Origin: Clostridia bacterium
GTDB taxonomy: Bacteria; Bacillota; Clostridia; Christensenellales; UBA1242
Length of the DNA stretch: 60,472 bases
Assembly (NCBI GenBank): GCA_017398655.1
Contig: JAFQFI010000008.1
Span: 1-60,472, forward strand
Direction: 5' to 3'
The notes under the pieces were generated by a model. The model saw only the letters and a program-made list of their open reading frames with translations, did no database searches and was not told where the DNA came from. Made by a program: the position numbers and the translations under genes. Shown piece after piece: positions 7,027-36,402 of this stretch. Position 1 is the first letter of the stretch, and every line of letters begins with the position of its first letter.

Positions 7027-7455
7027 ATGGATTTATATCAAATTTTTTGTTTAATTTTACTTGGTGTAGTAGTTTTAATGGGTATTGTTTTCTTTTTTGT
7101 TAACAGAAAATACACAAAACTTCTTAAAGCTATGAGCGAAAGAGAAGTTGATGATGTAAACATCAAAAAAGGTGTTAGATACACCGTTGACCAAACTGTT
7201 GTTGATGAAAATGGAGAAATGAATGTTTCTTTCTCACAAGGAGATGTTGTTTTACAACAAAATCAAACAGAAGTTGTAGGTGTTAAAAACAAAGTTAAAC
7301 CGGGTAAATATACAATGCTTTCTGCAAAAGATGAAGATGAAACTTTTAATCTTAGAGTTGGTGCTTATGTAAAAGAATATAAACACAACCAAAAAATTGT
7401 TTTAGCAGAAGGTCAAGAAATTACTGCCGTAAACTGCACAGTAATTCTTAGATAG
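7027..7455 (+). CDS. hypothetical membrane-anchored protein
   Basis: 142 aa with strong SD (AAGGAAGGG). One N-terminal TM helix followed by a soluble domain. First gene of the SPFH cluster. Confidence 0.6.
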   Translation: MDLYQIFCLILLGVVVLMGIVFFFVNRKYTKLLKAMSEREVDDVNIKKGVRYTVDQTVVDENGEMNVSFSQGDVVLQQNQTEVVGVKNKVKPGKYTMLSAKDEDETFNLRVGAYVKEYKHNQKIVLAEGQEITAVNCTVILR

Positions 7456-18028: not shown

Positions 18029-18077
18029 TGGTGGGCCACCGGGGACTCGAACCCCGGACCCACTGATTAAGAGTCAG
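18029..18077 (-). repeat. attL: displaced 3' portion of tRNA-Lys (49-bp direct repeat)
   Basis: Base-for-base identical to 32489-32537 (tggtgggccaccggggactcgaaccccggacccactgattaagagtcag). Confidence 0.9.
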
Positions 18078-18931: not shown

Positions 18932-19757
18932 CTGAATCTTTTTTAGTAATTTTTTTTAAAATTTCTTCCACTTTTAATTTTGTACTATTTGCTTTACTAT
19001 TACTGATAAACTGAAATTCCTCATTCTCACTTATGAGATAATCTAGATCATCCAAATCATAATAATTACTGCACTTTTGTTCCCATCTTTCAAAACGAAG
19101 TTTTATTATTACTTCATCTAATAATTTTATTGTCTCTTTGCCTATTCCTAAAAAAATTTTCAATTCTTTTTCACTGATTTTTTCTAATTCATATGCTCTT
19201 ATAACTGCAGTTTTATAAGGAACCATAAATGAATCCATTAATTTTTCAATATAAAAAACTTTTTCTTTTGATGTTTTTGGTTCTCTTTTACAAACAAGTT
19301 CAACCCTCTCTTTAGGCATTAGAAAACAAGAACTAAAAGCATTTGCCTTTTTATCGTTTATATTGCACTCAACTTCATTTGGATTATCCTTAAGTACATC
19401 TATTAAATTGTCATCCGTAGAATCTTCATGATTTTCTAGGAAATCAATAAAATGATAGAACTCATGAGCTAATGCTACATTTTGTTTGTTCATTGGAAAT
19501 TCTGAATTTATAACAATGAAAAATATTCCAGATATTTTATAAAACATACCCCATACTTGATCATCGTTAAAAGGAAGATATAATATTTTTAAACAAACAT
19601 TCTTTCTTTCTGCATATTCCTTTATAAATAATTTAAGATTATAAGCAATAGGTGTTAATTCTGAAATATTATAAAGAATCATGTTAGCTTTTTTTTCAAT
19701 ATCTCTAAATAAACTTTTATCAGAATAAAACAAACAATCTTTGATTTTAATAGACAT
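18924..19757 (-). CDS. ImmA/IrrE-family (M78, COG2856) zinc metallopeptidase
   Basis: 277 aa with the HExxH motif ALAHEFYHF. Its ATG directly abuts the stop of the upstream XRE gene, and the SD AAGGAGG lies inside that gene. Confidence 0.7.
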   Translation of the reverse strand: MSIKIKDCLFYSDKSLFRDIEKKANMILYNISELTPIAYNLKLFIKEYAERKNVCLKILYLPFNDDQVWGMFYKISGIFFIVINSEFPMNKQNVALAHEFYHFIDFLENHEDSTDDNLIDVLKDNPNEVECNINDKKANAFSSCFLMPKERVELVCKREPKTSKEKVFYIEKLMDSFMVPYKTAVIRAYELEKISEKELKIFLGIGKETIKLLDEVIIKLRFERWEQKCSNYYDLDDLDYLISENEEFQFISNSKANSTKLKVEEILKKITKKDSVE

Positions 19758-20108
19758 TTATGCCTCCTTATTATCATTTAAGTATTGTTGTTCAACAATA
19801 ATATCTGATAACTCAAAAATCAATTCAAAAGTTTTATTTGTCTCTTTTTTTGTAATCTCTCCCATAAGTTGAGCAGAAACTTTTTCTTTTAAAACTTTTC
19901 TTTGTCTTGTCAAATCTTCTATTTTACATGAAAAAAAATTAGCAATCTTTGCAAATTCGCTTGCTAATAAATTTCTCTTTCCTGCTAAAATTTTATTTAC
20001 TGTTTGTCTTGGCAAATCTAAAAACCTTCCTAGATCTGATTGTTTCTTCTTTTGTTTATTAAGTAAATCTAAAATATTTTGAGCAACCATTAAATCAAAA
20101 TTTTCCAT
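19758..20108 (-). CDS. XRE-family helix-turn-helix regulator
   Basis: 116 aa. QSDLGRFLDLPRQTVNKILAGKR is an HTH_3-type motif. Strong SD (AAAGGAGGG). Confidence 0.8.
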   Translation of the reverse strand: MENFDLMVAQNILDLLNKQKKKQSDLGRFLDLPRQTVNKILAGKRNLLASEFAKIANFFSCKIEDLTRQRKVLKEKVSAQLMGEITKKETNKTFELIFELSDIIVEQQYLNDNKEA

Positions 20109-20476: not shown

Positions 20477-21610
20477 TTAAAAAGGCAAATCTTCATCTAT
20501 TTTAACTTTTACTTTAGACAATTTTGCTTTTATACTTTTTATTACAATTTCTTGAAAATGCCTATCTTTTCTTTCAAACCAATTTAAAAAATCTTTAACC
20601 AATGCTGTTTCTATTCTTATGCCATTTGAATATGCATAATTATTTTTCACAAAAATCGATATTAGACTGGAGTTTTCTATTAAAACATTCTCCAAACAAT
20701 TTTCTTCTAATAAATTCTCTAAACCGTTTATTATTTCATCAACATTATCGTTAATCTTTTGTTCTGAAGAATGGTGATCTAAAGCCAAAATCATGCTAGA
20801 TGAAAAATTTAAATAAATTTCTTTGTCTTTTTCTGTTATATCTAATCTTGTTAACTCTTTATGGTTTATTTTATTTAAAATATCTTCAAAAGAAGCAAAC
20901 CTTTTACTAGGATCAGTTTCCAACATCTTATTTAAAATTGTTTTATACTCAAAATTGTTTAAACTATTTTTTTTCAAAAGTCTACTAAACAATTCTGCAA
21001 GACAAAACATATCTGTTTTTGACGTGTATTTCCCTACATTTATTTCAGACGGTATTTTTTCCATTCCTCTTCTATCTATAACTTTATTTAAGCTATCTTT
21101 AGACATTGATGATTCAGAGAAATCTTTTCCCAAACCAAAATCTATTATTTTTACAACGCCATTTTTGTCAATCATAATATTATTTGGTCTAATATCTCTA
21201 TGAATTATGTTGTTTTTTTCTAAACAATTAAAGGCGTTAATTAATTGTATAAAAATTGAATTCGCATCAATTTCAATATCTTTTTTTGATAGATACTTGT
21301 CAATAGTTTCTCCGTCAATGTATTCCATTAATATAAACCCAGCATTGTATTCATCATATAAATAATAATTATAAATTCTCACTATGTTTGGATTATTAAG
21401 TTTGTACATTATTTTTATTTCTTTTTTAAACATATCATAAAAATATTTTATATTTACACCTTCTTGAGGAAGATATTTTTTACATACAAAAAGTTCTTCT
21501 AGAGAATTATCCCTTAGTAAAACTGTTTGCCCACAAGAACCTTTACCTAATTTTGCATTAACCATTGTATAACTTTTTGTCTTTATAAAATTAATTATTT
21601 CGTTTTCCAT
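20477..21610 (-). CDS. Hanks-type Ser/Thr protein kinase with unknown C-terminal domain
   Basis: 377 aa. Has LGKGSCGQ (G-loop), VCKKY, HRDIRPNN and IIDFGLGK motifs, followed by ~125 aa of unknown function ending in DEDLPF. Confidence 0.8.
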   Translation of the reverse strand: MENEIINFIKTKSYTMVNAKLGKGSCGQTVLLRDNSLEELFVCKKYLPQEGVNIKYFYDMFKKEIKIMYKLNNPNIVRIYNYYLYDEYNAGFILMEYIDGETIDKYLSKKDIEIDANSIFIQLINAFNCLEKNNIIHRDIRPNNIMIDKNGVVKIIDFGLGKDFSESSMSKDSLNKVIDRRGMEKIPSEINVGKYTSKTDMFCLAELFSRLLKKNSLNNFEYKTILNKMLETDPSKRFASFEDILNKINHKELTRLDITEKDKEIYLNFSSSMILALDHHSSEQKINDNVDEIINGLENLLEENCLENVLIENSSLISIFVKNNYAYSNGIRIETALVKDFLNWFERKDRHFQEIVIKSIKAKLSKVKVKIDEDLPF

Positions 21611-21640: not shown

Positions 21641-21680
21641 AAAAAAAGAGACTCAAGTATTTTTTTAAGTCTCTTTTTTT
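21641..21680. terminator. bidirectional terminator between the replication-like gene and the kinase gene
   Basis: Hairpin AAGAGACT...AGTCTCTT flanked by A- and T-runs. Confidence 0.6.
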
Positions 21681-22512
21681 ACAAATCTATTTCATCTAAA
21701 TTATCAAAAAGCGATTCTAACTCTTCAGTTGTATAGTTCCTGGAGATAAAAGCTTTGCGTTCTTCTTTTTGGTTTGGTTGTTTATAATCATCATAGTATC
21801 CAGTTATAATTTTATGGTAGTTGTCCATTAAGAAATCAAAATCAATTCTTGGATTGTTCTGAAGAAATAAACTTTTATCCAAAGCTGCAAGAAGAGAATC
21901 ACATTTAAAACCTACAGGAAGTAGTGTTAATCTATCCACTTTAAATCTTGGATATTTTTCGAATAAAGGAACAAGTCTCTCATCTATACTACAATTTATA
22001 TTACTACTATAATTATTATCTTTTTGAGTGTCTATTTCTATATTATATATACTACTAATATTATTATTTTTAGTATTTATATTATAATATGTTAACCAAC
22101 TTGGACATTTTTGACCAAGTTCACTTGCCAACTTGGACATTTTTGACCAAGTTAGAAGTAAAAAATATTTTTTCACTCCAACTGTTTCACTTTGCTTTTT
22201 AGATAGAACGTGGAGAGATTTTTTTGTAAGACAGATATTTATACCTGCAAAAAGATTTTGTTTCTTAAGATAACCGGCATTTACAAGCTTTGAAATTAAA
22301 CGTTTTAATTGTTTAACTTCAATGTTTAAAATTGGAAGTGCTTCAAGAACTTCTCTATAATTAAACGTTTTAAAAAGAGAAACTTCTTGGCCAGAAACAA
22401 ACTCTTCAGATATTATTGACTTGGAGAAATAAAAAAGCAGCAATAGTTCGTTTGCTGACAATTTATCTTTTAAAATTATTCTTTGTTGATAATCAAAAAC
22501 GTAATCCCACAT
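21679..22512 (-). CDS. winged-helix replication-initiator/replisome-organiser-like protein
   Basis: 277 aa. N-terminal wHTH-like segment, N/S/I-rich linker, acidic C-terminus, and internal DNA iterons. The functional call is an inference. Confidence 0.35.
   Translation of the reverse strand: MWDYVFDYQQRIILKDKLSANELLLLFYFSKSIISEEFVSGQEVSLFKTFNYREVLEALPILNIEVKQLKRLISKLVNAGYLKKQNLFAGINICLTKKSLHVLSKKQSETVGVKKYFLLLTWSKMSKLASELGQKCPSWLTYYNINTKNNNISSIYNIEIDTQKDNNYSSNINCSIDERLVPLFEKYPRFKVDRLTLLPVGFKCDSLLAALDKSLFLQNNPRIDFDFLMDNYHKIITGYYDDYKQPNQKEERKAFISRNYTTEELESLFDNLDEIDL
22096..22153. repeat. two identical 26-bp iterons, each with an internal dyad (candidate origin)
   Basis: ccaacttggacatttttgaccaagtt occurs at 22096-22121 and 22128-22153. 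Each copy contains the dyad AACTTGG-N10-CCAAGTT. The 32-bp period is not a multiple of 3. Confidence 0.7.
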
Positions 22513-22571
22513 AAAAAACCCTCTAATTTTTCGCGTAGTTAAATTAGGGTATTGATTTTAATACCCTTTTT

Positions 22572-22789
22572 TTATAAAAAAGTCGATTTTAAAGCATTTT
22601 CGAGTGCTACGCACACAAGAGCTGAACAGCGTTTTTCTAATCGGATTTTCGATAATATATTTGCTCGTCCATACTCTTGCATACATATCGCACTACAGCA
22701 ACAGGTAGCCCCATTTTGACCCACAGGGGCTAAAGCCGATCCTGTGGGTAAATAAATCAAAATGGGGCATTAACAAAGTTGCTGTAGTG
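22572..22789 (-). other. GC-rich structured non-coding block (candidate ncRNA, packaging signal or single-strand origin)
   Basis: Nested perfect stems of 12, 12 and 8 bp span 22691-22789. More small hairpins lie at 22572-22690. The composition is clearly more GC-rich than the surroundings. Confidence 0.55.
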
Positions 22790-22946
22790 TATCCCTCGTT
22801 ACCAGTTTTTCTAATTCTGTTATCTTTCCCAAGGTTGCTTTCAATATTACCTGTTTGTTGATTTTGTCAGATTTGTAAATTCCTACTTTTACCAATCTGT
22901 CAACTTCTTTCCTGCAGACCTTTCTTTCTTGAGATATTTCAGCCAT
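22770..22946 (-). CDS. small hypothetical protein (58 aa)
   Basis: ATG with AGGAGA SD. Translates to MAEISQERKVCRKEVDRLVKVG... It is below the ORF-track length cutoff, and its 3' end runs into the 5' arm of the hairpin. Confidence 0.45.
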   Translation of the reverse strand: MAEISQERKVCRKEVDRLVKVGIYKSDKINKQVILKATLGKITELEKLVTRDTLQQLC

Positions 22947-22958: not shown

Positions 22959-23261
22959 TTATTTTAAAATTAAAGTGAAAATAATAAAAATAGCAGTTAT
23001 TGCTAAATATAAAAAAATAATGAGTTTTTGTAACATTACTAATAATATATTTTTAGTTCTTTTTGCTTTAGTTAACATAATAAGAGAAGTAATAAAGCCA
23101 ACTACTAAAGTAAATAAAGCGTATGGCAGTAAAAATATTGACCCTAAAACGTCACCAGTTTTAAATGGTAAAATATTAGTAATTGGCAAAATAATTCTGA
23201 CTGAAAACGCCAAGCAAACAACTTCTATTAAAAAACCAATTAAAGATAATATTTTTCTCAT
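22959..23261 (-). CDS. small multi-pass membrane protein
   Basis: 100 aa from the ATG at 23261, with an AAGGAGA SD. About 3-4 hydrophobic helices. Confidence 0.6.
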   Translation of the reverse strand: MRKILSLIGFLIEVVCLAFSVRIILPITNILPFKTGDVLGSIFLLPYALFTLVVGFITSLIMLTKAKRTKNILLVMLQKLIIFLYLAITAIFIIFTLILK

Positions 23262-23293
23262 CAATTCTCCTTAAATAATTTTATTTACAAATT

Positions 23294-24754
23294 TTAAGCC
23301 AATTTTTTGACCTTGTAAGCCCTGTTTATAATTTCTTGGTTAAATAGTTGTTTTATTTCATCTTCGCTTAAAACGGGTGTTTTAAAGGTCTCTACGCTGG
23401 CAGATTGATATTGACAAGCATATAAATTTCTAAAAGTTCGGTCATCATAAAAACAATTTAAGTTTGGTGGTAAAACAAAAGATTTTACACGAGAGCCAAT
23501 TTGACCTTTATTTCCAACTTCAAGGTTTCCATAATCTTCATACTTGAATTTTCTAAAACCAACTGAATTAACATAAGTTCTTAAATCGGATATAATTTTT
23601 ACTTTAGTGTCTGTAGGTTCATAATTTTGAATAAACTCTTCAAGCCAAGAAACAATCCAATCTAATAGATAAGGTTTTAAAACGTGTTTTTGTTCTATCA
23701 TTTTTTTATTTTCTGCTGTAACACGTCTTGCAGAAATTAAAGTAGCATTTCCGTCTTGTTCTGTAGAAACTAATCTAAAATCCTTATACTGTCTTGTAAA
23801 TCTAAACATGTGGTCTATCAATTGGATTTTATTATTAGAAAGTTCTGGTGGAAGCATTGAACCAATTTCGTCCAAGAAAGCAACGCCTTTATATAAAAGT
23901 TTACTTTTTTGTAGTAGGTGATCTGCTGTAAATTTACAAGCAGGTTTTCCGTCTTTAAAAATTGGAATGTTACTCCAGAAACAAGGAATGCAATCGTTTT
24001 CGCTATAAAACTCATAAGCTTCAACAACTTCTATTACATGTTTTATTTTGACTTCATCTCCGGTGTACTTCCTTTGATATTCGACAATTGGAAAACCTTT
24101 TTTATCAAGGCCGATAACTTTATGTTCCAAATGAGTTCCAGAATAAATCCTTATTATTTTATTTTCCAACTTCCAATATTCAAATTGAAGATTTTTCCAT
24201 AATTTATCTGCAATTTCAATTGAGTCGTATATACCTGAAGACGACTTTCCTGCTCCAGGTTCTCCCATTCTTAAAACAACGTATTTTGACATACTTAAGT
24301 TTTCAGAATGTGATATTACAGATAGTTCATAAAATTCGTTAGAAACAAAATATATAAGGGTGAAAAAAGTCGCAACTGCTAAAGGAATAAAAAGTATTAG
24401 TTTTTTAGCTGTAAATCCAAAAGATGAAACATAAAGAATATCTAAAAGCAAAACTATAATAAATTCAATCAAATAATGAAAACGTGCTAATTTTTGAAGA
24501 AAAGATTTTTTTACTTTAAAAACCAAAACTTTATCTATTAAGTTTTCATCGTCTTCCGGTTCTGGTTCATAAAATTTTGTTTGAGCTTCTTCTTTCTTTT
24601 TAAAATACTTTGCATAATCTCTCCAGTGCTGGAGGGCAAATAAATCTTCTTTTAAATGTTTATCTGCCAACTTCCAACGCTGTTTTGTTTTTTGATTACC
24701 TTTGTATTTTGAATATGTTAATAATTTAGGTTCTGAATAAGTTAATAACTCCAC
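23294..24754 (-). CDS. membrane-anchored P-loop NTPase, Zot-like
   Basis: Probable GTG start at 24754 after GAGG. Two TM helices are followed by Walker A GEPGAGKSS, Walker B AFLDEIG and FRFTRQYKDFRLVSTEQD, resembling the Zot/pI family pattern. Confidence 0.55.
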   Translation of the reverse strand: MELLTYSEPKLLTYSKYKGNQKTKQRWKLADKHLKEDLFALQHWRDYAKYFKKKEEAQTKFYEPEPEDDENLIDKVLVFKVKKSFLQKLARFHYLIEFIIVLLLDILYVSSFGFTAKKLILFIPLAVATFFTLIYFVSNEFYELSVISHSENLSMSKYVVLRMGEPGAGKSSSGIYDSIEIADKLWKNLQFEYWKLENKIIRIYSGTHLEHKVIGLDKKGFPIVEYQRKYTGDEVKIKHVIEVVEAYEFYSENDCIPCFWSNIPIFKDGKPACKFTADHLLQKSKLLYKGVAFLDEIGSMLPPELSNNKIQLIDHMFRFTRQYKDFRLVSTEQDGNATLISARRVTAENKKMIEQKHVLKPYLLDWIVSWLEEFIQNYEPTDTKVKIISDLRTYVNSVGFRKFKYEDYGNLEVGNKGQIGSRVKSFVLPPNLNCFYDDRTFRNLYACQYQSASVETFKTPVLSEDEIKQLFNQEIINRAYKVKKLA

Positions 24755-24755
24755 A

Positions 24756-27062
24756 TTAAACCTCAAATTCAATAGAATCAATTGTTAATGATGTCACTTT
24801 TCCATCAGTAAAACCTACAGGATTTTCTTCACCAGAAGCGTAAACTTTATTTATTTTTTCATACGATTTTACATAGATTTCTAAAGAATTAGTATCTAAA
24901 TCAATTTTTGCAGAAAAATATAGTGGGAAATAATAATAAGTAGAATCATTATACTGTTCGTTAAAAACTCCCATATAAGCAAAACTTTTAGCTAATAAAG
25001 GAACTGTAACTAATTCATCTAATTTATAAAGACCACTTTCTTCATCAAAAGTTAAATTTAAATCATAATCAACTGATTTATTTACACTATAACTATTTAT
25101 TTTTGTATAAGAAGAACCAAAAGTTTTCACATAATTTACCGTTTCAAGATAATAAGAACTAATATTTATAGCAATATTTTTAAAATCAGTTATAGGTTGC
25201 TCCAAAGAAGATAAATCAACTGTGAAAGTTGTATATGTGGAATAATTACCAGTTCCACTAAAAGCAGTTCCATATGTTAAAGTTTTTGATGCAATTTTAT
25301 AAATTGGATAAAAATCAGTATCTGAAGTTATTGCTATTGTTGAAATATCTATTACTGTTTCTTGATCTGTTGACCAACCAACAAAAACATATCCTGTTCT
25401 ATCACTTAAGATAGGTGTAACAGAGTATTTGTCTGTTTCAATAAGTTGAGTTTCTAAAATTACTAATTCTTCATTTTCATCATAGCCATAGAAATTAACA
25501 ACGTTTAATCTTTCAAATTCAGCAATATATGTTGTATGGCTTGTAATTGCTTCAGATAACACGTCTGTTAATATTCCATTCTTTAACCAGCCATTAAATT
25601 TATATCCGTCCTTTATTGGCTCTGCAGGAAGTTCTGGATAATGATTTAATTCAATTATTTGAGAATTATGTATATCTTCACTATCCTCATCAAGTTTGAA
25701 TATAACGTCAAAACTATAAGTTATATTTGCAACTAAAACAGTATCTGCAACAATTGGTGTTGTTGTTATATCAAATACAACATCATTTGAGTACCAACCA
25801 TTAAATTTCCTGTAAACACTACTTTCAACTTCAATTTCTGAAGCGTACTCATTATTTCTTACAATTTGAGTGTCTTGAGTAGTATCTTCATAAATAAAAG
25901 TTACTGTGTGAAGTTTTGTAAATACAGCTACAAAAATTGTATCTTGTGTTATTTGAATTTCTGTAGGATTTACTTTATCAACACCATTCAAAGACCAATA
26001 GTCAAACTCATATCCGTCTTTTACTGGCTCTGCAGGAAGTTCCGGATAATAATTAAGTTCTATAATTTGAGAACTATGTAAATCTTCATCTACTTTAAAC
26101 TTAACATCATATCTGGTTGTTATATCAGCATAAAATGTTGTATTTGCAGAAAGTGGATAAGAACTTAATTCAACTTCTTGTTTTTCTCCGTCAACTTCAA
26201 CGTACCAATAATTGAAAGTTACATATTCAGTTGATTCTGGATTAACAAGTGCAGGTGTAGTTCCTTTATTAATTACTTGAATGTTATAAACGCTATTATT
26301 AAAATAGAACGTTGCAACAACTTGATTTTCGTTTTCTAAATTTTTGATATATTGTTCATAATATTCAATTGATTTTTTTAAGCTTTCAACTTCGTTTTTA
26401 AGTGAAGTTAAAGCTGCAGAATTATTTTCTGAAGCAGTTGTCATTTCAGAAATTTGTTTATTTAAAGTTTCAATTTGTAAATTCATATTTACAATTGTTT
26501 GAGTGTTTAAATCATTGGTTGATTGTAAAGAAGCATTTACTGTTTGAAGATTTGAAATTTGTTTCTGAAGTAGCTCTATTTCTTCAGATTTATCTTCATC
26601 ACTTGCTTTAAGTTTTGTAACTTCATTTTTTAAATTTGAAATAGTTACTTTGTTTTCTGCAATTATTTTTTCATTTTCAGCATTAATTGTTTCTAAAGAA
26701 AGTACTCTATTTTGATAAGTATTTCTTTCACTTGTTAACGTTGAAATTTTAGTTTGATATTCCCAATTATTGTCTGTTAATACTTTAATTTGAGATTGAG
26801 AATCTGCTATTTCTTTTTCATAAGTTGCTACAAGTTTTTTATAGTAACTTTCATTATTCTTGGCGTCAGAATAACCGTCATTGTAAGCATCAGAAGTTAT
26901 TTCATCTACTTGTGTTTGAGTATAAATAGAACTTCCTTTTATAAGAGCAAATAACCCCTCTTTATTATTAAAAGTCCACCAAACACCAAAAACTAACGCT
27001 CCCACAATCAGTACACAAACCAAGGAAAAAGCTATGCTTCTTGCGTTCTTATTTTTTTCCAT
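24756..27062 (-). CDS. N-terminally anchored surface protein: coiled coil plus repeated P.P.K.GY.F.GW (Listeria-Bacteroides-repeat-like) domains
   Basis: ATG at 27062 after GAGGAGG. TM helix, ~200 aa of heptad-like sequence, then repeats such as YPELPAEPVKDGYEFDYW and YPELPAEPIKDGYKFNGW. Confidence 0.6.
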   Translation of the reverse strand: MEKNKNARSIAFSLVCVLIVGALVFGVWWTFNNKEGLFALIKGSSIYTQTQVDEITSDAYNDGYSDAKNNESYYKKLVATYEKEIADSQSQIKVLTDNNWEYQTKISTLTSERNTYQNRVLSLETINAENEKIIAENKVTISNLKNEVTKLKASDEDKSEEIELLQKQISNLQTVNASLQSTNDLNTQTIVNMNLQIETLNKQISEMTTASENNSAALTSLKNEVESLKKSIEYYEQYIKNLENENQVVATFYFNNSVYNIQVINKGTTPALVNPESTEYVTFNYWYVEVDGEKQEVELSSYPLSANTTFYADITTRYDVKFKVDEDLHSSQIIELNYYPELPAEPVKDGYEFDYWSLNGVDKVNPTEIQITQDTIFVAVFTKLHTVTFIYEDTTQDTQIVRNNEYASEIEVESSVYRKFNGWYSNDVVFDITTTPIVADTVLVANITYSFDVIFKLDEDSEDIHNSQIIELNHYPELPAEPIKDGYKFNGWLKNGILTDVLSEAITSHTTYIAEFERLNVVNFYGYDENEELVILETQLIETDKYSVTPILSDRTGYVFVGWSTDQETVIDISTIAITSDTDFYPIYKIASKTLTYGTAFSGTGNYSTYTTFTVDLSSLEQPITDFKNIAINISSYYLETVNYVKTFGSSYTKINSYSVNKSVDYDLNLTFDEESGLYKLDELVTVPLLAKSFAYMGVFNEQYNDSTYYYFPLYFSAKIDLDTNSLEIYVKSYEKINKVYASGEENPVGFTDGKVTSLTIDSIEFEV

Positions 27063-29037
27063 AAACGTTCCTCCTCTTGTTACCTTTTTTGTAAAAACCA
27101 AATATCCAAAGAAGAAGTTGAATTGGTAAAGAAACAATCCAAACTACGCCTTTAAATAAAAGCTTTAAAATTGGTTTTAAAAATGGAATTGCTAATAAGC
27201 AAATAAGAATTACTATTGCAATAAGTATCCATGTGAAAGTATTTAAACTTTTATCTTCAAGAGTTACATCTACATCAGAGATAATATCAAAAGGACTTGA
27301 AACAACAGGAATTGTATAAAACATAGCGTCATTTGTGAGAGTTAATTGAATAATATCAAAATCTAAAAAAACATTCTCTTGTGCAGAACTCATTGCATAA
27401 TCAGTTGCCGGAAAGTAAAAATCTCCTAAACGTTTTTCATAAGAAACTTGCAAATTTGAATAAGAAAGATAATCTGTTTCTGCAAATCTAAATAAGAAAA
27501 CTGTTTCTTCATTTTCAGTTGCATTATTAAAATATTCTCTAAAATCATCTACATCATTTTTTGCAATAAGTAAATTTTCAGAAACTTTTGAATCACTTCC
27601 GATAACTTCATCTGAAGTAACGCTTTTGATTGGAGCAATTGTTTTATCTTCAATAGTATTAACAGTAAAGAATGTTTCCCACCATGAAGCACTTTCATTT
27701 AATTTTGTAATCTCGATATTATCTTCCACTGTAATATCAATTTTGTTATATCCCATTTTTCTATCTGAAGTTGCTGTAGATGTATTGTAGTATTTAGCAT
27801 TGAACTCTTCTTCTGATAAAAATAAATCTGCAGATATTTCTCTACCATTACAGTCAATAATTCCATTTTTAAAAATGCTATAGTTATAAATATAATTACT
27901 TAAATCTTCACTCTTTAACGTGTAATCGCCAACTATATCTTCAGCTAAAAAAAGATAATTTATTTCATTTAAAGTGTTAAGAGCATAATCAGAATCTGCA
28001 TTGTAAATAAATGAATCCTCTAACCATTCTTTATATGGCGTATAAAGAGGTGATCCAACGGTAGTCCAAAAACCTCCCGGTCTTAAAACAGCACAATCTG
28101 GAACGTCTCCGGAGTTGTGAGCAATATTTACTCCAATATAATCTTTTAAACTATTATAAACTTTGCTTGATGATGTTATAAAAATATCTTTTGTTGCATA
28201 TTCCCAAAATTCTGCCTTAACAGAATAAATACTTCCATATTTTTCAATAATTGAATTTGGCACACTAAAGTAAACACTGTTTATTTGAGAACCTTTAAAA
28301 CGTTCTTCCATTCCGTCAGAGTCAAATCTGTAATAAGAGTGCTTAACGTCTAACGTTAGAGTTTCAATTGCATTAGCTTCACATTTTAAAGTAGATTCTT
28401 CACTATCTCCACCAAAACCTTTAGCATATCCAGTAAAAGAATATGAAGTTGAAACGTTATACTCTGTAGCATTTTCTCTATCAGCAACGTTTAATTCAAT
28501 ACCAGAGATATGATAAGTTCTTTTTAAAGAATTAAGTTTTGTTAAAAAGATTGAAGTATCAGATATTTTGAATTTATAAAAAAGTTCAGCATAATCTCCT
28601 TGAGAACGGTCGCAATATTCCAGGTTAAATTTTTCATAATTTATTGGATTATTTTCTTCATCAAACTCTACAGCAATTTGAACTTTATTTGTTTTTATAG
28701 TATCAATTTCAATACCTTGAGGATTGTATATGTAAAGATATAAATTGTAATTATCTTGCATATCCAGTTTGTATGAATAGCAATATTCAACAAAGTTAAT
28801 TACCACCATTTTATCTTCAGATTGGTCAAACGGATATTTTAAAATATCAAAGTTTTCACAAGACAATAAATCTTCCATTACTCTTGTTTGGTCTAAATTT
28901 TTAACTTCATCTGAAGAAGTTGAAGCATAAACGTTTACAGAACTTATTGTTGGTATTAAAAAAGAAATGGCAAAAATAATTGCCATTAACAATAAAAAAA
29001 TTTTATTCTTCTTTTCTTTCTTTTTCATCATAAGCAT
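27049..29037 (-). CDS. large secreted protein with signal peptide and C-terminal TM anchor (spike/adsorption-like)
   Basis: 662 aa. N-terminal signal-like segment ending ...VYAS, and a C-terminal hydrophobic region with a basic tail. Confidence 0.55.
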   Translation of the reverse strand: MLMMKKKEKKNKIFLLLMAIIFAISFLIPTISSVNVYASTSSDEVKNLDQTRVMEDLLSCENFDILKYPFDQSEDKMVVINFVEYCYSYKLDMQDNYNLYLYIYNPQGIEIDTIKTNKVQIAVEFDEENNPINYEKFNLEYCDRSQGDYAELFYKFKISDTSIFLTKLNSLKRTYHISGIELNVADRENATEYNVSTSYSFTGYAKGFGGDSEESTLKCEANAIETLTLDVKHSYYRFDSDGMEERFKGSQINSVYFSVPNSIIEKYGSIYSVKAEFWEYATKDIFITSSSKVYNSLKDYIGVNIAHNSGDVPDCAVLRPGGFWTTVGSPLYTPYKEWLEDSFIYNADSDYALNTLNEINYLFLAEDIVGDYTLKSEDLSNYIYNYSIFKNGIIDCNGREISADLFLSEEEFNAKYYNTSTATSDRKMGYNKIDITVEDNIEITKLNESASWWETFFTVNTIEDKTIAPIKSVTSDEVIGSDSKVSENLLIAKNDVDDFREYFNNATENEETVFLFRFAETDYLSYSNLQVSYEKRLGDFYFPATDYAMSSAQENVFLDFDIIQLTLTNDAMFYTIPVVSSPFDIISDVDVTLEDKSLNTFTWILIAIVILICLLAIPFLKPILKLLFKGVVWIVSLPIQLLLWIFGFYKKGNKRRNVYGKK

Positions 29038-29131
29038 TTGCTCCTAATAAAATGAATCTTGCTAATTCATTTGAATTTGGCAATCTACCATATTTTTTAT
29101 AAAATTCATTTCTAAAATCTTGCTTTGACAT
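29003..29131 (-). CDS. possible 42-aa protein
   Basis: ATG 8 nt after GGAG (ggagaaaacaaa atg). Translates to MSKQDFRNEFYKKYGRLPNSNELARF... Overlaps the start of the 662-aa gene. Confidence 0.3.
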   Translation of the reverse strand: MSKQDFRNEFYKKYGRLPNSNELARFILLGANAYDEKERKEE

Positions 29132-29145
29132 TTTGTTTTCTCCTT

Positions 29146-29466
29146 TTAAAAATTAAAAATATTTCCTACTTTGGTAATAGTAAATTTTTGAAAAATACCT
29201 TTTATTTCATGTAAGGTATAGAAGATTTTTGCTTGGTCTTCTGTTTGAAAACCATAAGCTAATTTATCCTGGTTAAAAACAACTCTAAATTGTTTTGAAA
29301 TAATATCATTTTCGATTATTACTAAATCATTTGTAAAAAGCTCTTGTCCGTTGTAATCATACAGGTTTATAAACTCTGACAACGTTTCAGAAGTGTTTTC
29401 AAACAACTTGATTAAAATCCACTTTTTCTCTTGTTTAGAATAATCTTTTATTTTAATTTCCCTCAT
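29146..29466 (-). CDS. hypothetical protein (106 aa)
   Basis: Internal ATG at 29466 preceded by GGAG. Overlaps the upstream gene by 14 nt. Confidence 0.5.
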   Translation of the reverse strand: MREIKIKDYSKQEKKWILIKLFENTSETLSEFINLYDYNGQELFTNDLVIIENDIISKQFRVVFNQDKLAYGFQTEDQAKIFYTLHEIKGIFQKFTITKVGNIFNF

Positions 29467-29776
29467 AAACTTTCTCCAATTCTTCAGAGTTAGATGAAGT
29501 TGTTTTTTTATTTTCATCTATGTTTTGAGTAAGAATTGTTAAATAAACAACCATTCCGTTTTTCTCAAAATCTTTTTTAAGATGTAAAGCTTTTTCTAAC
29601 GTTAACCCTTTATACTCAATTTTTATTTCATCATCTAAATTATTAAAAACGTTAACGGAAATTTTATCTTTCTTGTTTATTTTTCTAATATCTAAAAATG
29701 TTGGAAAAGTTAATTCAAAATAAATTGTTAAAAATAAAACAAAGAAAGCTAATAAAAATGTTAAAAATACTTGCAT
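29453..29776 (-). CDS. hypothetical protein with N-terminal TM helix
   Basis: 107 aa with a hydrophobic N-terminus (MQVFLTFLLAFFVLFL). Confidence 0.5.
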   Translation of the reverse strand: MQVFLTFLLAFFVLFLTIYFELTFPTFLDIRKINKKDKISVNVFNNLDDEIKIEYKGLTLEKALHLKKDFEKNGMVVYLTILTQNIDENKKTTSSNSEELEKVYEGN

Positions 29777-29790
29777 TATTAACCTACCCC

Positions 29791-30078
29791 TTATTCAAAC
29801 ATGTAAATAATTTTGATTAGTAAAGTTACATAAACCAGAATTAAAGCACAGTTTAATAAAGTCATGATTGTTGATTTTGCCTTGACCGATTCTATTAAAC
29901 TTTTTAAAGCTGAAATAAAACCAATAACTTTTAAAACGATAAGTAAAATAATATTTAAAACTTTTAAGAAAACATCAGAATTGTTTATTTCTCCACCAAC
30001 CAAGAAAGCAAAAATAAGACAGATAAATGAAACAAAAATCAATATTTCTTTAGTTCCTGACTTTTGATAATTAGCCAT
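29791..30078 (-). CDS. small three-TM membrane protein
   Basis: 95 aa, strong SD (AAGGAGG), three hydrophobic helices. Confidence 0.55.
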   Translation of the reverse strand: MANYQKSGTKEILIFVSFICLIFAFLVGGEINNSDVFLKVLNIILLIVLKVIGFISALKSLIESVKAKSTIMTLLNCALILVYVTLLIKIIYMFE

Positions 30079-30109
30079 AAATTAACCTCCTTTTTCATAA
30101 GTTTCAAAT

Positions 30110-30361
30110 TTATACAAATTTTTTGCCAACACCATTTTTATCCAGGACAATAAATTTTCCTAAAGGACATTTTGGAGAGCAGAAATGATAATCAATCATC
30201 TCGCAGGACTTATCACAAAACCTATTTGGAAAATCAGAATCATCATCTAAAAATTTGCATTTAGAACAAATTGCAATAACCTTTTTAAATTCAGAATCTA
30301 ACTTGTTAAAGTTAAAACTTCCTGTTGGTGAATTGTTTGCATTTCCATAAATTATCTCCAT
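30110..30361 (-). CDS. small Cys-rich (putative zinc-binding) protein
   Basis: 83 aa from the ATG at 30361 after GGAGGAA. Cysteines are arranged as CxxC...CxxxC...CxxxC. Confidence 0.5.
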   Translation of the reverse strand: MEIIYGNANNSPTGSFNFNKLDSEFKKVIAICSKCKFLDDDSDFPNRFCDKSCEMIDYHFCSPKCPLGKFIVLDKNGVGKKFV

Positions 30362-30386
30362 AACTTCCTCCAAATTTTTTTTATTT

Positions 30387-30545
30387 ATCCAGAGAAAACG
30401 GTAAAGAGAGCAAAGTTCTCTCTGGATATATTTACGAGTTTTTCGTAAATATTACTTTAATATTTACAATATTTTCGTAAATAGTCAAGTGTTTTTACGA
30501 AAATGTTGAAATTATTTTAATTTTTTTTACAATATTCTCGAATAA
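30387..30545. promoter_or_regulatory. divergent switch region: dyad hairpin plus four phased operator-like repeats
   Basis: TTTAC(G/A)A half-sites start at 30431, 30463, 30494 and 30526. O1 is a perfect 8-bp-arm palindrome (ATTTACGA-N5-TCGTAAAT). A 9+3-bp dyad lies at 30387-30427. Confidence 0.6.
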
Positions 30546-30557: not shown

Positions 30558-30905
30558 ATGAATTTAAAAGAAATAAGAGAAAGAAAAAAAATAAAACAAG
30601 TAGAAGTTGCAAAAGCACTAAACTTACCAAATTCAACATATAACGGGTATGAAAAAGAAACGAGTCAACCTAATATCGAAACTATTATTAAATTAGCCAA
30701 ATATTTTAATGTTTCCACAGATGAACTTCTTGGAGTTTCAAAAACAAAAAATATCAATCTAACTGAAAAAAATGCTTTATTAGATGTTATAGATTCTCTT
30801 ACTGAAATTGAATGTCATAAACTTAAAATTTTTGCTGAAGGTTTAATTTCTAATAGAATTGAAAAAACACCAGCATTCAAAGTTTTAAAAGATGATAGAG
30901 AGTAA
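30558..30905 (+). CDS. XRE-family HTH regulator (repressor candidate 1)
   Basis: 115 aa. HTH_3 motif QVEVAKALNLPNSTYNGYEKE. Confidence 0.8.
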   Translation: MNLKEIRERKKIKQVEVAKALNLPNSTYNGYEKETSQPNIETIIKLAKYFNVSTDELLGVSKTKNINLTEKNALLDVIDSLTEIECHKLKIFAEGLISNRIEKTPAFKVLKDDRE

Positions 30906-30908
30906 AAT

Positions 30909-31220
30909 ATGAAATTAAAAGAAATAAGATTAAAACAAGGTTTAAAACAATATCAAGTTGCAGATTTCCTTAATACAACTCAACATACAATATCAAATTA
31001 TGAAAAAGGAACCAGTCAACCTAATATCGAAACTATTATCAAATTAGCTAAATATTTTAACGTTTCCACAGATGAACTTCTTGGACTTTCCCAAGCAGAA
31101 ACAAATGAAACAGTTTTAACAAACAAAATCAAACTTTTAAACGAAGAAGAACTTTTCAAGTTGAACGTATTTGCAGACGCACTACTTTCTCTTCGTGAAC
31201 ATGAGGAAAAAAATAAATGA
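30909..31220 (+). CDS. XRE-family HTH regulator (repressor candidate 2)
   Basis: 103 aa. HTH_3 motif. Shares the block SQPNIETIIKLAKYFNVSTDELLG with the upstream gene. Confidence 0.8.
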   Translation: MKLKEIRLKQGLKQYQVADFLNTTQHTISNYEKGTSQPNIETIIKLAKYFNVSTDELLGLSQAETNETVLTNKIKLLNEEELFKLNVFADALLSLREHEEKNK

Positions 31221-31415: not shown

Positions 31416-32375
31416 ATGCCAAATTATAGAAAAAGAAAAAACGGAATATGGGAAGGAAGACAATACATAAATGGGAAAAGTTTTTCTGCATATTCCAAAA
31501 ACCTTAAAACATGTAAACAAAAATTAAAAGAAAAAATTTCAAATATAACATCAAATTCATTAAATAAAAATCTGCTTGTAAGTGAATGGTTTTTAACCTG
31601 GGCTGAAGTTTACAAACAAAAAAATCTTAAGATAAAAACATTCAACTCTCTTTTAGGTTTAATTAAAAATCACATAAATAAACTATTCAGGAACATATCT
31701 TTACAAAATTTAACCGGGGATATAATTCAAAAAAAATTAACAGAACTAAAACCAAGCAGAACCACCAACCTAATTTGCACGTATTTAAACGCCGGGTTAG
31801 AAAAAGCTTTACAACTTGGTTATATAAAAAGAAACCCTTACAAATCAACTGAAATAAAAAAACATAAAGTTGGCAAAGGTAAAGCTTTTACATACCAAGA
31901 GCAAGTAAAGATAGTAAACGAAGTTATTGGTTCTGATATTAAAGATTTGTTTTTTATTTATGTTTTAACCGGGATAAGAAAAAACGAAATTTACAACATA
32001 ATCAGTTTTGATTATGAAAAAGAACAAATAAAAGTTATTAGAGAAAAGAGTGATAATAAAATAAAAACAATCTTTGTTAAAAAAGAAGTTATTTCAATAA
32101 TTGAAAATTTGCAGCTAACAAAAACTTCAAGTGATGTTTTTTATAAAAAATTCAAAAAGATTTTAAAACGTTTAAACGTTACCGGAACAGTCCATTCCTT
32201 AAGACACACTTACGCAACAAATAATTATTATCTTGGAACTCCAATAAAACATCTGCAACAGTTTATGGGGCACGAAGATATAGCATTAACTTACAATATT
32301 TATACTGATTTTGATGAAGAATTAACAAAAGAAAAAATTGTTAAATTATATAATAATTTATATTACACTTTTTAG
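31416..32375 (+). CDS. int: tyrosine recombinase (phage-type integrase)
   Basis: 319 aa. C-terminal HSLRHTYAT...GHEDIALTYNIYT fits the R..H-x-x-R..H..Y catalytic pattern. Adjacent to the att site. Confidence 0.85.
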   Translation: MPNYRKRKNGIWEGRQYINGKSFSAYSKNLKTCKQKLKEKISNITSNSLNKNLLVSEWFLTWAEVYKQKNLKIKTFNSLLGLIKNHINKLFRNISLQNLTGDIIQKKLTELKPSRTTNLICTYLNAGLEKALQLGYIKRNPYKSTEIKKHKVGKGKAFTYQEQVKIVNEVIGSDIKDLFFIYVLTGIRKNEIYNIISFDYEKEQIKVIREKSDNKIKTIFVKKEVISIIENLQLTKTSSDVFYKKFKKILKRLNVTGTVHSLRHTYATNNYYLGTPIKHLQQFMGHEDIALTYNIYTDFDEELTKEKIVKLYNNLYYTF

Positions 32376-32383
32376 CGTTTTTT

Positions 32384-32405
32384 AGTACCCAAATTAGTAC
32401 CCAAA
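32384..32405 (+). repeat. tandem AGTACCCAAA arm-type sites (right arm)
   Basis: AGTACCCAAA occurs twice at a 12-bp period, the same arrangement as 18113-18134. Confidence 0.6.
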
Positions 32406-32488: not shown

Positions 32489-32564
32489 TGGTGGGCCACC
32501 GGGGACTCGAACCCCGGACCCACTGATTAAGAGTCAGTTGCTCTACCAACTGAGCTAGTGGCCC
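32489..32564 (-). tRNA. tRNA-Lys (anticodon CTT); its 3' 49 nt form attR
   Basis: Reverse complement is GGGCCACTAGCTCAGTTGGTAGAGCAACTGACTCTTAATCAGTGGGTCCGGGGTTCGAGTCCCCGGTGGCCCACCA. It folds as a cloverleaf with CTT in the anticodon loop. Confidence 0.9.
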
Positions 32565-33975: not shown

Positions 33976-36402
33976 ATGTTAGATAAAAAATATGATTTTA
34001 AAACTGCCGAAAAGAAATGGCAAGAATATTGGCAACAAAACGGCACTTACAAATTTGATAAAGATAGTAAAAAACCAATTTATTCAATTGATACTCCACC
34101 ACCAACTGTTAATGGTAAAATTCACATTGGCCACATTTTTAGTTATAGCCAAGCAGAATTTATTGCAAGATACAAAAGAATGATGGGTTACAATGTTTTC
34201 TACCCATTTGGATTTGACGATAATGGCTTACCTACTGAGTTATTAGTAGAAAAAGAAAGGGGCTTAAAAGCATATACAGTTTCTCGTGAAGAATTTTCAA
34301 AAATGTGTATGGAAACTGTTGATAAATATGAAAAGAGCTTTAAAGATTTATTTATCTCTGTTGGTAACAGTGCAGATTGGTCACTTGCTTACCACACAGT
34401 TAGCCCAGATTGTCAAAAATCAAGCCAAATGTCTTTCTTAGACCTATACAAAAAAGGTAAAGTTTATTATGCAGAAGCACCAGCACTTTGGTGTACAAAA
34501 TGTGCAACAGCAATTGCTCAAAGTGAATTAGAAAGCGAAGAAAAAGAAAGTACTTTTAACTATTTAAAATTCTACATTGAAGGTAGCGATGATTATGTTG
34601 AAATTGCAACAACTCGTCCAGAACTTCTTTGTGCTTGTGATTGCATTTTTATCAATCCTAAAGACGAAAAGAATGCTCATTTGTTAGGCAAAAAAGTAAG
34701 AGTTCCATTATACAACTTTTATGTACCAGTAATGAGTGACGATAAAGTTGACCTTGACAAAGGTACTGGCGTTGTTATGTGCTGTACTTTTGGTGATCAA
34801 ACAGATACTCAATGGTTTAAAAAATACAACCTTGAACTTAAAGTTGCTATTGATGACTTAGGTCGTATGACAGCAATTGCTGGTAAATACGAAGGTATGA
34901 AAACAAAAGAAGCTCGTGCTGCAATTATTGAAGACCTTAAAGCAGAAGATTTACTTATTAAACAAGACCCTATTTCCCACCAAGTTTCTGTTCACGAAAG
35001 ATGTGGAACTGAAATGGAAATAAAACTTAAAAAACAATGGTTTATTAAAACTTTAGAAAATAAAGAAGAATGGATTAAAAAAGGCAACGAAGTTGAATGG
35101 CACCCAAGTTTTATGAAAGCCCGTTATATGGACTGGGTTGAAAACTTGATGATGGATTGGTGTATTTCTCGTCAAAAATACTTTGGCGTACCATTCCCAG
35201 TTTGGTATTGTAAAGATTGTGGTGAAATTATAGTAGCTGGCGAAGATGAACTTCCTGTTAACCCACTTACAACAAATCCAAAACATGCATGCCCAAAATG
35301 TGGTAGCAAAAATTACATTCCAGAAAGTGATATTATGGATACTTGGGCAACAAGTAGTATTACCCCACAAATCAACACAAAATGGAATGTTGATGACGAG
35401 TTTTACAAAAAGATGATGCCTATGACATTAAGACCTAATGCTCACGACATTATTAGAACTTGGGATTTTTACACAATTGTAAAATCTTTCTATCACTCAA
35501 ACTGCTTACCTTGGAAAAATGTTATGATTAGTGGCTTTATTATGGCAAGCCAAGGTCAAAAAATTTCAAAGAGTAAATCAAACTCAAAAAGCGATCCAAT
35601 TGATTTAATTAACACCCACTCTGCTGATGTTGTTAGATATTGGACAGCAACTGGTAGTTTAGGTAGAGATATTATCTTTAACGAAGATAAATTTAAAATT
35701 GGCGCAAGATTAACAAACAAAATCTTTAACGCAAGTAAATTTGTTTGGTTGTTCTTAGAAAATTATAAACCAAAGAAAAATACAAAATTAAAACCAATGG
35801 ATAAATGGATTCTTTCCAAATTCAATGAAATGAGAGAAAGATTTATCAGTTATTTTGAAAAATATGAAGTTGGTCTTGCAATGCAAGAACTTGAAAACTA
35901 TTTCTGGAACTTCTGCGATAACTACATTGAACTTGTAAAAGTAAGATTATATAATCCAGATATTTATGGCGAAGATGCAAAAGAAAGTGGACAATATGCT
36001 TGCTACCATGTATTACTTGAAATGCTTAAAATGTTTGGTATTTACCTTCCTCACATTACAGAAGAAGTTTATCAAAACACATTTAAAGATACAGTGGGTG
36101 CTCCTTCAATTCATAATATAGAATTAACTGCACTTCCTGTTGAAATTGACAAAGATTTAATTAAAAAAGGCGATGAAGTTTGTGATATAGTTTCTCAAAT
36201 AAGGGGCTATAAAACAGATAACAAACTTTCACAAAAAACAAAATTAACAAAAGCAACAATCACATCAAATAATACAGAGTTCTTTAAATCTGTAGAAGAT
36301 GATGTTAAAGCAGTTTCTTCTGCACAAGATATTGAATACCTTGAAGGCAACACTGCTGTTGAAATTGCAGGTTTTATTGTAGAAGAAAAAGAATCAAAAT
36401 AA
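33976..36402 (+). CDS. valS: valine--tRNA ligase
   Basis: 808 aa. HIGH-type GKIHIGH, editing-domain ATTRPE, and KISKS (KMSKS-type). Confidence 0.75.
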   Translation: MLDKKYDFKTAEKKWQEYWQQNGTYKFDKDSKKPIYSIDTPPPTVNGKIHIGHIFSYSQAEFIARYKRMMGYNVFYPFGFDDNGLPTELLVEKERGLKAYTVSREEFSKMCMETVDKYEKSFKDLFISVGNSADWSLAYHTVSPDCQKSSQMSFLDLYKKGKVYYAEAPALWCTKCATAIAQSELESEEKESTFNYLKFYIEGSDDYVEIATTRPELLCACDCIFINPKDEKNAHLLGKKVRVPLYNFYVPVMSDDKVDLDKGTGVVMCCTFGDQTDTQWFKKYNLELKVAIDDLGRMTAIAGKYEGMKTKEARAAIIEDLKAEDLLIKQDPISHQVSVHERCGTEMEIKLKKQWFIKTLENKEEWIKKGNEVEWHPSFMKARYMDWVENLMMDWCISRQKYFGVPFPVWYCKDCGEIIVAGEDELPVNPLTTNPKHACPKCGSKNYIPESDIMDTWATSSITPQINTKWNVDDEFYKKMMPMTLRPNAHDIIRTWDFYTIVKSFYHSNCLPWKNVMISGFIMASQGQKISKSKSNSKSDPIDLINTHSADVVRYWTATGSLGRDIIFNEDKFKIGARLTNKIFNASKFVWLFLENYKPKKNTKLKPMDKWILSKFNEMRERFISYFEKYEVGLAMQELENYFWNFCDNYIELVKVRLYNPDIYGEDAKESGQYACYHVLLEMLKMFGIYLPHITEEVYQNTFKDTVGAPSIHNIELTALPVEIDKDLIKKGDEVCDIVSQIRGYKTDNKLSQKTKLTKATITSNNTEFFKSVEDDVKAVSSAQDIEYLEGNTAVEIAGFIVEEKESK

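Follow-up and report, generated by a model that had tools for sequence, protein, structure and literature searches.

An integrated, capsid-less element of a Clostridia bacterium with a membrane-anchored pI/Zot-family ATPase and a probably inovirus-like morphogenesis operon

Inoviruses have been predicted at scale in monoderm hosts (Roux et al. 2019, PMC6813254), and in 2023 those of the gut spore-formers Enterocloster and Hungatella, with genomes of 6.5-8.5 kb and one of 16 kb, were found to be secreted (PMC10061712). Elements named IME1 from Dehalococcoides, which measure 21-28 kb, are larger than classical inoviruses and have been reported in Chloroflexota only, have been proposed to be non-lytic viruses (bioRxiv 10.64898/2026.09.15.751708). 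Here we analyse a stretch of 60,472 nucleotides from a Clostridia bacterium (contig JAFQFI010000008.1 of assembly GCA_017398655.1; hereafter the window), in which a 14.46-kb integrated element carries a long operon for membrane and surface proteins together with an ATPase. A preliminary description of this DNA had stated that hardly any such elements are on record from spore-forming Firmicutes, a view that is now outdated; since inoviruses of monoderm hosts were predicted in 2019 and their secretion was shown in 2023, the general idea is already known. We consider it probable that the operon is the morphogenesis module of a temperate, non-lytic, inovirus-like (Tubulavirales-type) element; it is most likely a filamentous-type prophage of unusual make-up and not a system of an entirely new kind.

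The element spans 14,460 bp, is inserted at the 3' end of a tRNA-Lys gene and is flanked by exact 49-bp repeats of the 3' part of that gene. With these attachment (att) repeats, an integrase and two repressors (Table 1), the module is part of a mobile element that is integrated and has no capsid, as the preliminary description had proposed. Its size (14.46 kb including cargo, and 11.2 kb in a relative) agrees with the small genome of mostly short uncharacterised genes by which inoviruses have been recognised (Roux et al. 2019, PMC6813254). The morphogenesis genes all lie on the minus strand, from 30373 to 22959, and because they overlap or are spaced by only 12-31 nt we treat them as a single operon. 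All the genes listed in the preliminary description were found on this strand, and their topologies agreed with a Kyte-Doolittle hydropathy scan, from which all transmembrane (TM) and topology calls were taken. As to the extent of the module, which had been placed at 22959-30361, the genes in that interval are real, but the conserved module actually reaches 21679 and takes in the gene of a 58-aa protein, a structured intergenic region and the gene of a 277-aa protein. Comparison with relatives retrieved through the ATPase (designated below by locus number) gave a conserved core made up of the 95-, 107-, 106-, 662- and 768-aa proteins, the ATPase, and the 101-, 58- and 277-aa proteins, which is retained across at least five lineages at identities down to 45-60%. 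The best-conserved small protein is that of 95 aa (47-66% identity in relatives). For the Cys-rich protein, an alternative TTG start at 30373 would give 87 aa, and the open reading frame (ORF) of the 106-aa soluble protein has a longer version of 123 aa (29146-29517).

When the module ORFs were searched against Pfam, PHROGs and NCBIfam, none matched a capsid, portal, terminase, tail, lysis, relaxase or VirB4 protein, all of which except lysis proteins had been noted as missing in the preliminary description, and no cell-wall hydrolase, VirB6 or FtsK_SpoIIIE family member was detected with Pfam and NCBIfam. The sole matches to conjugation families in the latter two databases (TraP and IcmG/DotF) are coiled-coil matches lying far under the cut-off. 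Most genes of the element have no family at all in Pfam or PHROGs, and the ATPase is the only classifiable protein of the module. We rejected a tailed or icosahedral phage, both Pfam and PHROGs being negative and the two large proteins being membrane-anchored surface proteins, and the hallmarks of a conjugative element (a VirB4-type ATPase, a relaxase and a VirD4/FtsK coupling protein) were absent from the Pfam and NCBIfam results. The small membrane proteins comprise one of 95 aa with three TM segments, one of 107 aa with a single TM segment and one of 101 aa with three; those with three were also considered as holins, a possibility that we rejected, given the lack of a charged C-terminus in these proteins and of any endolysin.

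The evidence for an inovirus-like assembly system comes mainly from the ATPase. This protein of 486 aa starts from a GTG at 24754 (the ORF, 23294-24781, has 495 aa), with TM segments at residues 104-122 and 128-146, a Walker A motif GEPGAGKSS at 173-181, and the motifs AFLDEIG and STEQD. Its close homologues (n = 14) are all metagenomic, and a profile built from them retrieved 297 representative proteins (E <= 1e-3). Eight of 68 sampled members of this family matched Pfam Zot (PF05707), with a best E value of 8.3e-6. When the family hidden Markov model (HMM) was compared with the Zot proteins of five gut Inoviridae genomes, scores of 72, 42, 28, 26 and 25 bits were obtained; the 72-bit match is the Zot protein of bajarodino virus 71, and the alignment spans the PCLxSNIP, Walker B, RHF and TEQD..RR segments. 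That Zot protein itself scores 26 bits on PF05707, against a cut-off of 20.3 bits which M13 pI passes too. In hhalign comparisons the ATPase profile reached 98.9% (E 2.4e-17), 97.3% and 95.2% with three gut inovirus Zots, while L2 ORF3 (12.7%) and HRPV-1 VP8 (9.3%) aligned at the P-loop alone. Foldseek of the ATPase model against BFVD returned Inoviridae Zot with a probability of 0.99-1.0, as well as an unnamed viral protein (E 9.5e-8), and the single sequence gave two weak tblastn matches, to 'Zonula occludens toxin' genes of rodent-faeces Inoviridae. Against PDB sequences the family profile gave P-loop matches only. The Zot/pI likeness claimed in the preliminary description is thus borne out by these comparisons. 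The N-terminal position of the TM helices, which it had taken for a departure from Zot, is shared by the gut inovirus Zots and by 120 of 125 family representatives with the N-terminal extension. From the profile matches and this shared N-terminal anchor, we assign the ATPase to the pI/Zot group as a distant member, in a clade characteristic of elements from the gut and probably from monoderm hosts, an assignment which is solid although transitive, in that it runs through the family profile and not through the single sequence.

Of the two large surface proteins, the one of 662 aa has hydrophobic segments at residues 13-31 and 602-620 plus a second C-terminal helix, and belongs to a family with at least 508 homologues (E <= 1e-3; 35-50% identity over the full length), many of which come from Clostridia metagenome-assembled genomes and none of which is annotated. 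Among the matches listed, 115 of 120 homologues retain both the N-terminal signal-like segment and the C-terminal TM segment. A confident structural model (predicted local distance difference test, pLDDT, 80.7; predicted template-modelling score, pTM, 0.78) consists of a beta-rich ectodomain and a C-terminal helical hairpin. Foldseek of this model against PDB found no meaningful neighbour (best E 0.09) and no HK97 or jelly-roll match; as modelled, the protein does not have a known capsid, portal or fusion fold. We regard it as a putative pIII-like terminal or adsorption protein and as the hallmark of a large family. The protein of 768 aa has an N-terminal TM anchor, a coiled coil at about 95-275 and four Flg_new/List_Bact (Listeria-Bacteroides) repeats (Pfam, 2.5e-21); members of its family range from 602 to 1205 aa and carry either Flg_new or LRR_5 repeats. 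Its C-terminal ~115 aa (24809-25152) show no nucleotide similarity to the closely related locus L001, while the flanks are 96-97% identical, so that the C-terminus looks to have been exchanged as a tip cassette, a pattern that usually marks a receptor-binding tip.

Downstream of these genes lie the putative replication gene and a structured spacer. The N-terminal ~125 aa of the 277-aa protein are strongly conserved, with weak winged-helix matches; it has nine homologues only and no Pfam family. Two perfect 26-nt palindromic repeats are found within its gene (22096-22121 and 22128-22153), and the replication protein (Rep) gene of L006 contains the same palindromic motif (22-26 nt; 6974-7027) at an identical 32-nt spacing, the two proteins being 52% identical. 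These repeats are probably an origin or initiator-binding sites, and we infer that the gene is a replication-initiator gene with an internal origin. Inovirus replication modules are known to be exchangeable (PMC6813254), and in the lineage of this element the rolling-circle Rep appears to have been replaced. Neither the 277-aa nor the 662-aa protein had a tblastn match in 50,697 phage records. The adjoining 257-nt intergenic region folds, as DNA, with a z of -5.4 relative to shuffled sequence, and five lineages retain its long bulged hairpin, 11 of whose 21 pairs show compensatory changes; hairpin-rich counterparts of this spacer are found in L002 (11673-12002), L004 (12349-12634), L006 (6340-6607) and L008 (7250-7454). 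This region may be a packaging signal, an origin or a regulatory leader, and could act as DNA or RNA. The second small hairpin of the spacer is preceded by a conserved CTCTTG; a pC194-type nick site, 'CTCTTG(ATA)', was considered here and rejected, the full motif being present in one relative only and there being no HUH Rep.

Examination of the relatives bears on mobility and on the wider family. L006 is a circular contig of 11,246 nt whose ends overlap by 55 nt and which is free of host DNA, the integrase gene and an attP with a tRNA 3' fragment lying internally; from these features it is the excised circle of a relative. Other relatives adjoin tRNA-Val, tRNA-Ala and tRNA-Arg genes, and one has a serine recombinase and a LexA-like S24 repressor. 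In L001 the core ORFs are intact and 96-98% identical to those of the element, whereas cargo, regulators and tip domain differ; L001 was rejected as a circle, its ends being 29-30 nt of the att repeat, as from a break of the de Bruijn graph at the repeat (k = 31 assumed). Three further loci (L024 1-8462, L023 and L025), on contigs of up to ~8.5 kb, share the 277-aa Rep and the 58-aa protein, as well as a homologue, of 453 aa, of the 662-aa protein, yet have a different ATPase, of 287 aa with an N-terminal Walker A, no TM segment and a sub-threshold Zot match, and because of this the assembly ATPase seems to be exchangeable within the group. At more distant loci (L029 4833-21950, L030, L026 and L028), the protein next to the homologue of the 662-aa protein is N-anchored and of 706 aa; its P-loop is degenerate and its hhalign match to the ATPase profile weak (42%), and after it comes an HUH Rep of PF23343 (REP_ORF2-G2P), the inovirus/plectrovirus type. 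As the synteny of a large protein with signal peptide and C-terminal TM segment, a membrane ATPase and a Rep spans classical inovirus size and replication, it supports an inovirus-like affiliation. The same four loci also hold a sigma-70 region-4 regulator and three secreted proteins of 190-360 aa, none annotated, and on the opposite strand genes for ArdA, PcfJ and a MutS_I-domain protein; they may represent either a virus or a conjugative element.

Table 1. Positions in the window of the features of the element and of its insertion site
Feature	Position	Strand	Remarks
attL, 49-bp direct repeat identical to tRNA-Lys 3' part	18029-18077		exact repeat; 0 chance matches expected
Arm-type repeat TTTAGTACCCAAATAAGTACCCAAA	18110-18134		partner at 32381-32405 adjoins integrase; 96% identity; putative integrase arm sites
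Cargo: XRE, M78/ImmA-like peptidase, 260-aa protein without known family	18149-20108	-	XRE 19758-20108; peptidase 18924-19757; 260-aa protein 18149-18931
Cargo: Ser/Thr protein kinase	20477-21610	-	PD-T4-6-like anti-phage defence
277-aa putative replication initiator	21679-22512	-	N-terminal winged-helix-like domain; no HUH motif; in all relatives
Structured intergenic region	22513-22769	-	257 nt, upstream of 277-aa gene; long bulged hairpin and further hairpins
58-aa basic soluble protein	22770-22946	-	kept in relatives
101-aa membrane protein	22959-23264	-	three TM segments
pI/Zot-like assembly ATPase, 486 aa, membrane-anchored	23294-24754	-	two N-terminal TM segments; Walker A GEPGAGKSS; Walker B FLDEIG; STEQD..RR
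768-aa N-anchored surface protein	24756-27062	-	coiled coil and Flg_new repeats; putative host-recognition protein
662-aa protein	27049-29037	-	signal peptide, beta-rich ectodomain, C-terminal helical hairpin anchor; putative pIII-like terminal/adsorption protein
42-aa soluble ORF	29003-29131	-	called as gene in L001 too
106-aa soluble protein	29146-29466	-	weak YopX-like match (Pfam); kept in relatives
107-aa protein	29453-29776	-	N-terminal TM anchor
95-aa protein	29791-30078	-	three hydrophobic segments; candidate major particle/membrane protein
Cys-rich FCxxxC-type protein, 83 aa	30110-30361	-	first gene of the operon; ATG at 30361; six Cys
Two palindromic operator-like repeats ATATTTACGA..TTTCGTAAATA	30428-30483		divergent control region
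Two tandem XRE/CI-type repressors, 115 and 103 aa	30558-31220	+	
Tyrosine integrase	31416-32375	+	
tRNA-Lys(CTT)	32489-32564	-	attR is its 3' 49 nt (32489-32537)

Taken as an inovirus-like prophage, the element might work as follows. The XRE repressors, bound to the palindromic operators, would hold the operon silent, and upon induction the integrase would excise a circle, on which the 277-aa winged-helix protein would initiate replication at the palindromic repeats in its own gene. The pI-like ATPase and the 95-, 101- and 107-aa membrane proteins would then package the DNA at the cytoplasmic membrane into a particle that has no capsid and is extruded without lysis, a point for which the lack of lysis genes in the Pfam and PHROGs searches is indirect evidence. 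The conserved hairpin region, lying between Rep and the morphogenesis genes, may be the packaging signal or origin. The type-I-anchored 662-aa protein and the 768-aa repeat protein would be exposed terminal or adsorption proteins, with the swappable tip of the latter setting the host range, and the kinase and the XRE/M78 cassette would be defence cargo benefiting the lysogen.

The two repressor genes are paralogues in tandem that share 90% identity over a stretch of 103 nt, and nowhere does the element differ more from L001 than in their region (30558-31220; 79-85%), a divergence that suggests a different immunity type. Cargo amounts to ~3.5 kb of the 14.46 kb. In the otherwise 97%-identical L001, two other genes (180 and 57 aa) stand in place of the kinase gene; the XRE/M78 cassette matches the candidate defence system PDC-M69, and could alternatively be an ImmR/ImmA-type induction switch. 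Outside attL lie the gene of an Mrr-type nuclease (15406-16755) and a RelA/SpoT-domain gene (16891-17964), the latter matching the candidate defence system PDC-S33 with 338 bits. Together with the cargo of the element and these neighbours, the tRNA-Lys site looks like a defence island. An Rfam scan of the element found nothing but tRNA above the gathering score, and a promoter scan, with 88 sites against 87 expected, is uninformative in this AT-rich DNA. The sampled flanking genes are ordinary bacterial housekeeping genes, including cell-envelope sugar and glycosyltransferase functions, and none of them matched sporulation proteins. The window is a metagenome contig, and its host an uncultured bacterium of low GC content (~27%); the host's valyl-tRNA synthetase (33976-36402) is short, at 808 aa, and its phosphoglucosamine mutase (5446-6837) scores best to the archaeal-type GlmM model, under the cut-off of that model.

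A number of results do not sit easily with an inovirus-like element and count against it. No ORF matched a Rep family of the HUH rolling-circle type, and the 277-aa protein did not align with G2P-type or bajarodino Reps, so that the production of single-stranded DNA (ssDNA) is left unexplained. No protein fits the classic major coat (30-90 aa, a single TM segment, basic C-terminus). The single ATPase sequence matched nothing in Pfam, PHROGs, NCBIfam, PADLOC or PDB-sequence searches, its family profile is linked only weakly to M13 pI (hhalign, 46.8%), and its AlphaFold2 model is moderate (pLDDT 64), with generic RecA/DnaB folds as the only Foldseek neighbours in PDB (template-modelling score ~0.2). 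Scans of IMG/VR with alignment patterns of the ATPase and of the 662-aa protein gave no relatives. Compared with a textbook inovirus the element is therefore unusual in that it lacks an HUH Rep and a classic coat, is large and has two very large surface proteins. Several of these features would suit a double-stranded DNA (dsDNA) virus budding from the membrane, pleomorphic or filamentous, whose pI-like ATPase packages dsDNA, in analogy to IME1 or, functionally, to plasmavirus L2; the 95- and 101-aa proteins would be particle membrane proteins, and the 662- and 768-aa proteins spikes. A non-HUH winged-helix replication protein and in-gene palindromic repeats are typical of dsDNA replicons, a genome of 11.2-14.5 kb is at or above the usual inovirus range, multi-TM small proteins and a type-I-anchored large protein fit a set of envelope proteins, the circular relative L006 was assembled from an ordinary metagenome library, and IME1 provides a precedent (bioRxiv 10.64898/2026.09.15.751708). 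This has to be set against the closest ATPase relatives, which occur in circular faecal Inoviridae genomes of 4.7-8.5 kb, the pairing of the wider 662-aa family with an inovirus-type HUH Rep, and the absence of sequence similarity to L2 or HRPV-1 proteins. The sampled flanking host genes moreover include the envelope functions mentioned above. To our knowledge, budding through the cell wall has no precedent in Firmicutes, and we hold a budding dsDNA virus to be rather unlikely.

The alternative of a non-viral integrative element, transferred by cell contact, would make the ATPase a DNA translocase like TraB of actinomycete integrative and conjugative elements (AICE) or TcpA of clostridial plasmids, and the large surface proteins adhesins. 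The arrangement of N-terminal TM segments and P-loop does resemble that of FtsK-type coupling proteins, pI itself belongs to the FtsK-HerA superfamily (PMC6813254), the 768-aa family carries Flg_new and LRR_5 repeats of adhesin type, and genes for ArdA and PcfJ lie beside distant family members. But the ATPase aligns with inovirus Zots beyond the P-loop, a tblastn search of 72,556 plasmids found no homologue of it, and the relaxase, VirB4, VirB6, cell-wall hydrolase and FtsK_SpoIIIE families went undetected in the Pfam and NCBIfam searches, which makes contact transfer improbable. It is very improbable, in our estimation, that the locus is a defective or helper-dependent island (a satellite), or a cell-surface and defence island past forming particles. 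The lack of a recognisable major coat protein and the defence cargo next to an adjoining defence island would agree with such decay or dependence, yet all ORFs of the module are uninterrupted and recur with 96-98% identity in a second sample in which cargo and tips have been exchanged, the core is kept in five lineages or more despite identities as low as 45-60%, and a relative occurs as a circle. We therefore retain the inovirus-like prophage as the preferred reading.

What is new here is (i) a specific lineage with only 14 close ATPase homologues, (ii) a predicted non-rolling-circle replication module with a putative in-gene origin, (iii) a hairpin region that appears to covary, and (iv) a large, structurally novel hallmark family, that of the 662-aa protein, which is absent from IMG/VR scans with the patterns used. 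Hardly any studies deal with chronic, non-lytic phages in gut Firmicutes, although such phages can be cargo carriers and undergo continuous secretion; the present element has a defence kinase of PD-T4-6-like type and an adhesin tip that can be swapped. Beside pI, the 662-aa family offers a second marker for finding such elements, which standard viral catalogues seem to miss. Being without an HUH Rep and a classic coat, the lineage also makes a test case of whether pI-type extrusion machines handle genomes beyond small ssDNA circles. A bolder possibility, to which we give little credence at present, is that this lineage and the gut Clostridia family marked by the 662-aa protein are viruses driven by a pI-type ATPase which replicate as dsDNA without a rolling circle and carry dsDNA in membrane-derived filamentous or pleomorphic particles. 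If true, they would be a Firmicute counterpart of the viruses proposed for IME1 of Dehalococcoides, invisible to current virus-detection pipelines.

Overall, the preliminary description had left the choice between an inovirus-, a plasmavirus- and a pleolipovirus-like virion. The inovirus-like option stands through the Zot link, while the other two do not, no protein being similar to those of L2 or HRPV-1. Plasmavirus L2 (Plasmaviridae), of ~12 kb, does resemble our element in general terms, as a circular virus that integrates, does not lyse its host, encodes large envelope proteins with signal peptides and lacks capsid genes. HMMs of the nine core families gave nothing below E 0.2 in the six-frame ORFs of L2, in which the ATPase family profile detected no Zot-like ATPase. 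The Pleolipoviridae, represented by HRPV-1, have archaeal hosts and share the functional triad of small membrane protein, type-I spike and NTPase; no HMM matched HRPV-1, VP3 and VP4 being unrelated and VP8 aligning as described above. Membership in either family was rejected for this want of homology to L2 or to VP3, VP4 and VP8. With IME1 of Dehalococcoides, to which the element is likened by description only, it has in common an integrated or episomal state, a pI-like ATPase, small TM proteins and no tailed-phage hallmarks (bioRxiv 10.64898/2026.09.15.751708).

The gene order parallels that of the Ff phages (M13/fd, Inoviridae), namely small membrane proteins, an adsorption protein with signal peptide and C-terminal anchor, pI, a hairpin-rich region and the replication gene, and the hairpin region lies between assembly and replication genes as does the Ff intergenic region, which holds the packaging signal and origins (M13 map). 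In contrast to the Ff phages, where the link to pI is marginal and the TM segment is C-terminal to the ATPase, the TM segments here are N-terminal; a pIV secretin is absent, which agrees with a monoderm host, and integration is by a tyrosine recombinase. Compared with the gut inoviruses (4.7-8.5 kb), this lineage is 2-3 times larger (11-14.5 kb), its ATPase has an N-terminal extension of ~165 aa and an insert of ~50 aa relative to their Zots, and the element has the additional 768-aa repeat protein and neither an HUH Rep nor a classic single-TM coat. Besides the ATPase, no protein is shared with them at a similarity detectable with HMMs; those of the other core proteins matched nothing in M13, five gut inoviruses, L2 or HRPV-1. 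The gut Inoviridae with N-anchored Zot (bajarodino viruses and Inovirus sp. MT135295) and the inoviruses of monoderm hosts are the systems that share with our element a homologous pI/Zot ATPase with N-terminal TM segments. They likewise have no capsid or terminase, many short genes without known function and a low-GC gut setting, encode a large protein with signal peptide and C-terminal TM segment upstream of pI, and are temperate, with att repeats, a recombinase and a repressor.

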